64,000 bases of DNA. It comes from Escherichia coli. Its GTDB lineage: Bacteria; Pseudomonadota; Gammaproteobacteria; Enterobacterales; Enterobacteriaceae. The stretch's first letter is position 1. Each line of letters starts with the position of its first letter. Below the pieces are notes generated by a model that worked only from the letters and a program-made list of their open reading frames with translations, searched no databases and was not told the origin of the DNA. Location of the stretch: assembly GCF_003334335.1 (NCBI RefSeq), contig NZ_QOWQ01000006.1; one strand, written 5' to 3'. Both the position numbers and the translations under genes were made by a program. Below, piece by piece: positions 55,904 to 58,391 of the stretch.

Positions 55904-56944
55904 TCATTTATCGGAAGACGCCTGCCACAGATTCAGCTCGCCATCGGCGATATGCTGATCAATCTGCGCCAGCTCCTTGGTGCTAAATGTCAGATTATTC
56001 AGCGCCTGCACGTTCTCCTCTAGTTGCTCCGCGCGGCTGGCACCAATCAATACCGACGTCACGCGATCATCTTTCAGCAACCAGCTTAACGCCATTTGCG
56101 CCATTGATTGTCCACGCTGCTGTGCCATTTCATTCAATAAGCGCAGGCTGTTGAGGTTGGCTTCGGTAAGCATTTTCGGTGTCAGACCACGAACTTTATT
56201 CCCTTCACGATGCATCCGTGAATCTTGCGGAATGCCGTTGAGATATTTTCCGGTCAGCAATCCCTGAGCCAGAGGAGTAAAGGCAATACAGCCCACGCCG
56301 TTATTTTGCAGGGTATCCAGCAGGCCGCTTTTATCCACCCAGCGGTTCAGTAAATTGTACGAAGGTTGATGAATTAACAGCGGAATTTTCCACTCGCGCA
56401 GCAACTCGACCATTTTTTGCGTCCGCTCTGGCGAGTAAGAGGAGATCCCGACATACAGCGCCTTACCGCTTTGTACCGCATGAGCCAGCGCAGAGGCGGT
56501 TTCTTCCATCGGCGTATTTTCATCGACGCGATGAGAGTAAAAGATATCGACATACTCAAGCCCCATACGCTTCAGGCTTTGGTCGAGGCTGGCGAGCAGG
56601 TATTTACGTGAACCGCCAGAGCCGTAAGGGCCGGGCCACATATCGTAGCCAGCCTTGGTAGAGATAATCAGTTCATCGCGATAAGCGGCAAAATCCTCCC
56701 GCAGCAGGCGACCAAAGTTCTCTTCTGCGCTTCCTGGAGGCGGCCCGTAATTGTTGGCTAAATCAAAGTGCGTAATGCCCAAATCAAACGCTTTACGCAG
56801 GATCGCACGCTGTGATTCCAGCGCGTTAACGTGACCGAAATTGTGCCATAAACCGAGCGATAACGCGGGCAGGCGTAAACCACTTTTTCCGCAATAGCGG
56901 TATTGCATCTGCCCGTAACGTTCGGGATTCGCTAACCAGACCAT
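55904..56944 (-). CDS. gpr: L-glyceraldehyde 3-phosphate reductase (aldo-keto reductase; YghZ)
   Basis: 346 aa AKR family. Confidence 0.9.
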   Translation of the reverse strand: MVWLANPERYGQMQYRYCGKSGLRLPALSLGLWHNFGHVNALESQRAILRKAFDLGITHFDLANNYGPPPGSAEENFGRLLREDFAAYRDELIISTKAGYDMWPGPYGSGGSRKYLLASLDQSLKRMGLEYVDIFYSHRVDENTPMEETASALAHAVQSGKALYVGISSYSPERTQKMVELLREWKIPLLIHQPSYNLLNRWVDKSGLLDTLQNNGVGCIAFTPLAQGLLTGKYLNGIPQDSRMHREGNKVRGLTPKMLTEANLNSLRLLNEMAQQRGQSMAQMALSWLLKDDRVTSVLIGASRAEQLEENVQALNNLTFSTKELAQIDQHIADGELNLWQASSDK

Positions 56945-57100
56945 GACCTCTCCTTTCCACCGTTCAATTTCGAAACAATGTTTCTAGTTTAGCGATTCGC
57001 CAGCGCGTATCCCGTAGTCTGGCTCACAGAGTGACGAAAAACTGGGCAAAAACACGTGCTTATGCTTTGCTTAAAAAAACACCAACTGAGGAGTGCAACG

Positions 57101-57985
57101 ATGCCGCGTTTAACCGCCAAAGATTTCCCACAAGAGTTGCTGGATTACTATGACTATTACGCTCACGGGAAAATCTCGAAACGTGAGTTCCTCAACCTTG
57201 CGGCGAAGTGCGGTAGGCGGGATGACGGCATTAGCGTTGTTTGATTTGCTCAAGCCAAATTATGCGCTGGCGACTCAGGTAGAGTTTACCGACCCGGAAA
57301 TTGTTGCTGAGTACATCACGTATCCTTCGCCAAATGGTCACGGCGAGGTGCGGGGTTATCTGGTGAAGCCCGCAAAGATGAGCGGCAAAACGCCAGCCGT
57401 AGTGGTGGTGCATGAGAATCGTGGACTGAATCCGTATATCGAAGATGTGGCACGGCGAGTGGCGAAGGCGGGGTATATCGCCCTGGCACCTGACGGCTTA
57501 AGTTCCGTTGGAGGTTATCCGGGAAATGATGATAAAGGTCGTGAGCTGCAACAGCAGGTTGATCCAACAAACTGATGAATGATTTCTTTGCCGCAATTGA
57601 GTTTATGCAACGCTATCCGCAAGCGACAGGCAAAGTGGGTATTACCGGATTTTGCTATGGCGGTGGCGTATCGAACGCGGCGGCTGTCGCGTATCCGGAA
57701 CTGGCCTGCGCGGTGCCGTTTTATGGTCGTCAGGCACCCACTGCCGATGTGGCGAAGATTGAAGCGCCTTTACTACTCCACTTCGCGGAACTGGACACCC
57801 GAATCAACGAGGGCTGGCCTGCTTACGAGGCGGCGTTGAAAGCCAATAATAAGGTTTATGAGGCGTATATCTATCCGGGGGTTAATCACGGATTCCATAA
57901 TGATTCCACGCCCCGTTATGACAAATCTGCCGCCGATCTTGCCTGGCAAAGGACACTGAAATGGTTCGATAAATATCTCTCCTGA
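57101..57985 (+). pseudogene. yghX: dienelactone hydrolase-family gene disrupted by two frameshifts
   Basis: Three consecutive ORF pieces (57101..57244, 57150..57575, 57575..57985) each carry dienelactone hydrolase-like sequence ([39 protein letters not shown]) in frames 2/0/2; the second junction is at an AAA run at 57569-57571. Confidence 0.75.
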
Positions 57986-58103
57986 TAGGTTTATCTCTTA
58001 CGGGATTACGTCTTAAACAAGCATGAAAAAATAGCGTGCGCAAAAGTCGTTCTTTGCCTAAAATATCGCTATATATGACAATATATAGCGAATGAGGTGA
58101 ACG

Positions 58104-58391
58104 ATGAATAACCATTTTGGTAAAGGCTTAATGGCGGGATTAAAAGCAACGCATGCCGACAGTGCGGTTAATGTGACAAAATTCTGTGCCGATTATAAAC
58201 GCGGTTTTGTATTAGGCTACTCACACCGGATGTACGAAAAGACCGGAGATCGCCAGCTTAGCGCCTGGGAAGCGGGTATTCTGACGCGCCGCTATGGACT
58301 GGATAAAGAGATGGTAATGGATTTCTTTCGTGAGAATAATTCCTGTTCTACGTTGCGCTTTTTTATGGCCGGTTATCGCCTCGAAAATTGA
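58104..58391 (+). CDS. yghW: DUF2623-family small protein YghW
   Basis: 95 aa; synteny upstream of the hyb operon. Confidence 0.7.

Follow-up and report, generated by a model that had tools for sequence, protein, structure and literature searches.

The feature at positions 57101-57985 of the window (the whole 64,000-nucleotide stretch of Escherichia coli DNA analysed here) is very probably, at roughly 0.94, the E. coli yghX gene, a member of the YghX family with a dienelactone-hydrolase fold, which was pseudogenised by two successive small deletions that became fixed in one lineage. The pseudogene is already known and catalogued, and the finding is real but ordinary. As a catalogued K-12 pseudogene it carries little weight for biology at large, and the hydrolase remains intact in most strains of E. 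coli, its structure having already been solved. What is gained is a precise account of the two steps by which yghX decayed and of their order; either junction can be used as a simple lineage marker.

The yghX reading frame is split into three segments

Three open reading frames cover the feature on the plus strand, namely 57101-57244 (47 aa from ATG), 57150-57575 (141 aa) and 57575-57985 (136 aa), of which the second lies in the +1 frame and the third shares the frame of the first. When the window was translated in three frames, the hydrolase-like sequence began in frame 1, continued in frame 2 and ended in frame 1 again. We then compared the three segments with the profile NF041440 ('YghX family hydrolase'). 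The results showed that 57101-57208 matched profile positions 1-34 (E 9e-15, 54.6 bits), 57210-57569 matched positions 36-155 (E 9e-69, 231.8 bits) and 57575-57982 matched positions 158-292 (E 5e-78, 262.2 bits). The fragments thus occupy consecutive profile positions, and none alone reaches the cutoff of 460 bits, as is expected of a split gene. This split-gene observation is far above chance level. The coordinates of the features are collected in Table 1.

Table 1. Features of the yghX pseudogene in the window
Feature	Positions	Strand	Basis or remark
Shine-Dalgarno-like GAGGAG, 7 nt 5' of the yghX/yqhI start codon	57088..57093	+	read from the sequence
Whole yghX pseudogene, ATG to native TGA	57101..57985	+	885 nt, 3 nt shorter than the intact 888-nt alleles; alignment to intact alleles
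yqhI ORF, 47 aa (residues 1-36 of YghX followed by 11 residues read out of frame)	57101..57244	+	identical to MG1655 b4755
Lesion 1, 2-bp deletion (TA, equivalently AT); codon 37 (TAT, Tyr) is lost and the reading frame displaced	57208..57209	+	alignment columns 109-110
Middle segment, YghX codons 38-157, readable in the +1 frame only	57209-57568 (360 nt)	+	translation; NF041440 match
Lesion 2, 1-bp deletion of C in the codon of Thr157 (ACC to AC); original frame regained	57568..57569	+	alignment column 470
3' segment, YghX codons 158-295 plus stop, original frame	57569..57985	+	translation; NF041440 match
Codon of Cys186, predicted nucleophile (G-F-C-Y-G elbow)	57653..57655	+	aligns with 4U2C residue 123 (Ser in that variant)
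Codon of Asp233, predicted triad	57794..57796	+	aligned to 4U2C Asp171
Codon of His264, predicted triad	57887..57889	+	aligned to 4U2C His202

A stretch of 1,100 bases containing yghX was matched in all 5,426 of the 5,426 complete E. coli genomes, and each of the full-length matches listed lay under the feature 'yghX: YghX family hydrolase'. On sequences 100% identical to the window, the PGAP/RefSeq label was that of a pseudo-CDS, 'YghX family hydrolase, frameshifted', and the neighbours in these genomes were gpr on one side and yghW-hybOAB on the other. A quoted description involving modA was tried for this locus and rejected, as modA is absent from the annotated neighbours. A simple sigma-70 and terminator scan of 56900-58150 yielded no plus-strand promoter upstream of yghX, with match counts at shuffle level. 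In metabolic engineering, yghX has routinely served as a pseudogene integration site that is neutral for insertion (PMC7677707, among many other works).

The closest known counterpart is the yghX gene of K-12 MG1655 (b4658) together with yqhI (b4755). The 885-nt gene of MG1655 is identical to that of the window, so that both deletions, the premature stop and yqhI coincide, and the gene order (gpr, yghX, yghW, hybO) is the same. Over the surrounding 8 kb the window and MG1655 differ by three mismatches (57053, 59452 and 60724), and the window therefore comes from a close relative of MG1655 and not from MG1655 itself. At 57053 the window has C and MG1655 has T; this position precedes the yghX/yqhI start by 48 nt and lies where the promoter is presumed to be. 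In NC_000913.3, the MG1655 pseudogene is drawn from the ATG at 57150 only, and the first 144 nt are given separately as yqhI. The sequence comparison shows that yghX and yqhI of MG1655 derive from one ancestral gene.

Two deletions disrupt yghX

To place the lesions, we aligned the window with three alleles, two of them intact (888 nt) and one of 886 nt; this alignment contained exactly two indels, of -2 and -1. After position 57208, the intact alleles read AAG TAT GCG and the window reads AAG T GCG; after position 57568, the intact alleles read CCA ACC AAA CTG and the window reads CCA AC AAA CTG. The window junctions are AAGTGCG at lesion 1 and CCAACAAAC at lesion 2, and the corresponding undeleted forms are AAGTATGCG and CCAACCAAAC. 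Because both lesions are deletions and their sum is -3, the first 36 and the last 138 codons lie in one frame. In the frame of the start codon, translation meets a premature TGA at 57242-57244. The yghX of the window thus has both marks of a pseudogene, a frame disrupted relative to intact orthologues and a premature stop.

Apart from these three bases, the coding sequence is well preserved. The intact allele translates as a single ORF of 295 aa, and the middle segment of the window, translated in its own frame, is 100% identical to the intact protein over the same stretch. Lacking three bases, the window cannot encode the intact YghX (WP_001137768.1, 4ZV9) in one frame; with these bases restored, it shows 0 amino-acid differences from the intact allele WP_001137768.1. 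At the nucleotide level, the repaired window and the intact allele differ at 8 positions, all synonymous. The identity of the repaired protein to the intact allele, with no further coding decay, is consistent with a recent inactivation.

A preliminary description of this DNA had proposed a yghX-like gene of the dienelactone hydrolase family inactivated by frameshifts, and both points held: the three fragments match NF041440 consecutively, and the two indels relative to intact alleles, the premature TGA and the RefSeq 'frameshifted' pseudogene label agree on the inactivation. The frameshifts had been called opposite in sign, which is correct in terms of frame (+1 and -1) and incorrect for the indels, both of which are deletions (-2 and -1). 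A middle stretch of about 330 bp in a different frame was likewise recovered as a displaced frame, but its length is 360 nt. The first junction had been expected within 57200-57250, and the alignment places it there. The second had been assigned to the AAA run at 57569-57571; this run has the same length in intact alleles, and the lost base is the C after 57568. With the run extended to AAAA the peptide would be restored (ACA AAA, Thr Lys), but the nucleotides would differ from the ancestral sequence. The proposed alignment to intact orthologues yielded 888-nt single-frame E. coli alleles and 295-aa orthologues in other Enterobacteriaceae, and no intact orthologue had the nucleotide sequence of the window, since the 3 additional bases are present in every intact allele.

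Frequency and order of the two deletions in E. coli

We counted the alleles in 5,426 complete E. coli genomes, using junction queries of 50-52 bases centred on each junction. As megablast is unable to seed across the alternative allele, each junction query counts one allele only. The TA-deleted junction was found in 1,505 of the 5,426 genomes (~28%) and the C-deleted junction in 1,199 of the 5,426 (~22%). The intact CC junction was present in 4,222 of 5,426, and the C-deleted and intact-CC counts together comprise 5,421 genomes of 5,426. For the intact TA junction the count was at least 3,593 of 5,426 (at least 3,491 with a second query); these are lower bounds, since nearby SNPs interrupt the 28-base seed, and up to ~330 genomes are unclassified at lesion 1.

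Chimeric queries were used to determine how the two lesions are combined. A query carrying both deleted junctions matched 1,505 genomes, equal to the TA-deleted set, of which 1,195 contained the two junctions together. A query carrying the intact TA and the C-deleted junctions matched 4,690 genomes (3,491 + 1,199), and zero genomes had both. The C deletion is thus found only alongside the TA deletion, which indicates that TA was lost first. The TA deletion alone occurs in about 306 genomes, and one such 886-nt allele was read directly. These results demonstrate that the lesions are real and inherited, being present in 1,505 and 1,199 genomes in a strictly nested pattern. The double-lesion form is common to about a fifth of sequenced E. 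coli, K-12 included. The TA-deletion clade may correspond to phylogroup A, to judge from the membership of K-12.

The same counts bear on the possibility that yghX is really intact and that both indels are artefacts of sequencing or assembly. Single-base indels are a frequent class of error, which would favour such an explanation, and the preliminary description had raised it for homopolymers, but no long homopolymer is present at either lesion (TAT to T; CC to C). Moreover, several unrelated assemblies share this 1,100-bp sequence at 100% identity, and both junctions occur in ~1,195 complete genomes, including the repeatedly resequenced K-12 MG1655. Given the non-homopolymer sites and the recurrence in more than 1,000 independent assemblies, sequencing error is excluded for practical purposes; the case rests on identical sequence across many independent assemblies and not on the reads of this isolate. 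The earlier judgement that this is a real pseudogene and not a sequencing error is therefore upheld by about 1,195-1,199 independent complete genomes with the double-lesion sequence.

Programmed recoding, by which ribosomes would shift +1 near 57209 and -1 near 57569 and so produce a near-full-length hydrolase, also deserves next to no credence. It is true that the two shifts cancel and that the rare Arg codons AGG CGG stand in the zero frame at 57215-57220, just downstream of lesion 1. However, two independent efficient events would be required, and neither site, when the sequence was read by eye, has an X XXY YYZ slippery heptamer or a long homopolymer. A search of 56900-58200 with E values up to 1 gave no Rfam match and hence no known RNA element or stimulator of frameshifting. 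A plain gene in a single frame is both the ancestral and the majority form, the homologues are likewise single-frame, and a zero-frame 47-aa termination product has been seen experimentally (PMC6001520). The TA-only intermediate allele suits stepwise decay and not a designed pair of shifts. Accordingly, yghX displays neither the slippery motif or stimulatory RNA nor the conserved shift by which a programmed ribosomal frameshift is recognised.

Some variant alleles were observed during this comparison. In the TA-only allele that was read directly (L002 1150-1986, equivalent to the window from 57150 onward), a 278-aa ORF starts at an internal ATG and joins a new N-terminus to YghX residues 38-295. 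TA-only strains might make a near-complete hydrolase from this ORF. In strain STK78-E (L006 1474-2171), an IS1 element is inserted inside yghX. Of the yghX coding sequence, strain IAL7255 (L007 2248-3097) has only the final ~96 nt, with 212 bp matched overall, and this remnant adjoins IS1 and has been relocated beside mdtM. The changes in STK78-E and IAL7255 are independent additional damage to yghX.

Features of the intact YghX protein

The protein of the intact allele, which equals the translation of the repaired window, scored 587.3 bits against NF041440 over profile positions 1-292 (cutoff 460) and therefore belongs to this family. It also belongs to the Pfam family DLH (PF01738), as residues 84-294 matched model positions 1-217 of 217 (E 3.3e-48). 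Residues 1-36 matched PF23678 ('YqhI-like', 36 positions). The PDB entry 4ZV9 ('Uncharacterized protein') spans residues 59-294 and is near-identical (E 2e-161). Three parts thus make up the ancestral 295-aa protein: a conserved N-terminal segment of 36 residues, a hydrophobic stretch resembling a signal peptide, and a domain with the dienelactone-hydrolase fold.

Intact single-frame orthologues of 294-299 aa with both Pfam domains were found in Citrobacter (C. koseri), Pseudescherichia, Enterobacter, Kosakonia, Leclercia and Silvania, and they align gap-free over both lesion sites. The N-terminal 36 residues are near-invariant in seven enterobacterial genera.

We further compared YghX with the Pseudomonas dienelactone hydrolase (carboxymethylenebutenolidase) ClcD, represented by 1DIN and 4U2C, which share the same numbering. 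The two proteins belong to the same fold family, and their Cys-Asp-His positions align. Cys123 of the Pseudomonas enzyme is a catalytic residue. The positions of Cys123, Asp171 and His202 of ClcD are all matched in YghX, and the three codons are intact in the last fragment of the window, so Cys186, Asp233 and His264 are predicted to form the catalytic triad of YghX. The relationship is distant (E about 4e-15), YghX has an additional 58-residue N-terminal extension, and the annotated neighbours of yghX include no chlorocatechol pathway genes.

The N-terminus of intact YghX up to residue 58 corresponds to window positions 57101-57274. Beyond the 36-residue segment, YghX has a mildly hydrophobic stretch followed by ALA|TQ, and the 4ZV9 construct starts at residue 59. 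A Tat signal was considered for this N-terminus but is not supported: the motif reads S-K-R-E-F-L-N against S/T-R-R-x-F-L-K, with KR conserved in the seven genera. The Pfam and NCBIfam output for intact YghX contained no Tat-signal family. The N-terminus nevertheless appears to resemble a long Tat-type export signal in which KR replaces RR, and it may work in a Tat- or Sec-like manner.

YqhI is the 5' remnant of yghX

The GAGGAG site and the start codon of yghX are unaltered in the window, and the former fits the detected translation of YqhI (PMC6001520). In that study the product was detected in MG1655 by means of a chromosomal SPA tag inserted directly ahead of the premature stop, and a glycosyltransferase-domain match was given for YqhI (PMC6001520). 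By alignment, YqhI is a truncated YghX N-terminus, and the 'YqhI-like' family PF23678 corresponds to the N-terminal part of full-length YghX proteins. This link is absent from PMC6001520 and from PMC11429745, the only two works on yqhI in the literature searched, the latter of which makes no mention of yghX. Since the Pfam 'YqhI-like' domain is placed on full-length YghX, the data for the link already exist. Annotation should be read with care in this respect, as K-12 lists the 5' end of a dead gene as a separate small-protein gene, yqhI, after which a Pfam family has been named. Studies of YqhI should regard the peptide as a truncated YghX N-terminus.

The sole alternative with any support is that of a functional split gene, in which fission left YqhI or the C-terminal fragment with a kept or new function. 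YqhI is indeed translated (PMC6001520), its ribosome footprints and RNA go up in low Mg2+ and deletion of yqhI reduces growth yield under this condition (PMC11429745), and its 36 N-terminal residues are near-invariant between genera. However, plasmid-borne YqhI failed to complement the deletion phenotype and its overexpression had no effect (PMC11429745), and the tail of YqhI is out-of-frame sequence. The C-terminal ORF starts at ATG 57575 without an obvious Shine-Dalgarno sequence and encodes a fragment without the N-terminal half of the alpha/beta fold, and the locus is further disrupted by IS1 in some strains. We therefore consider a retained or new function of either fragment very unlikely, and favour pseudogenisation.

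A more specific possibility, which is speculative and to which we give little credit, is that YqhI persists as a cytoplasmic peptide still able to bind the partner of the 36-residue segment, which might be a targeting factor or a chaperone for export, and so acts as a new small regulator. YqhI could persist as a cytoplasmic peptide because it retains exactly the near-invariant 36 residues without the hydrophobic export segment. If this were true, the TA-deletion lineage would have gained a small regulator, which might explain the phenotype of the yqhI deletion in low Mg2+, which was not complemented.

Proposed course of yghX decay

Under the favoured reading of a pseudogenised yghX, against which no observation speaks, decay would have begun with the loss of a TA dinucleotide in codon 37. 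Ribosomes from the still-active start would then leave the native frame past residue 36 and reach a TGA 11 codons on, yielding the 47-aa peptide annotated as YqhI and no hydrolase domain from that start. Later in the same lineage, one C would have been lost in codon 157. This second step would have had no functional consequence, the gene being already dead, and would have returned the last 138 codons, including the whole triad, to their original frame. We infer that no hydrolase is made at all from the double-lesion yghX, which is indirectly supported by the truncated 47-aa product (PMC6001520), and that the C deletion was probably neutral. The restoration of the frame by the C deletion can be read as non-random; restoration by chance is not unlikely.

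A palindrome downstream of yghX

Positions 58066-58091, downstream of the yghX stop and ahead of the yghW start, form a perfect palindrome, CGCTATATAT-GACA-ATATATAGCG. A constitutive yghW promoter with the -10 element GACAAT has been described (PMC3946193), and the palindrome overlaps that -10 element. It may represent a candidate operator site.
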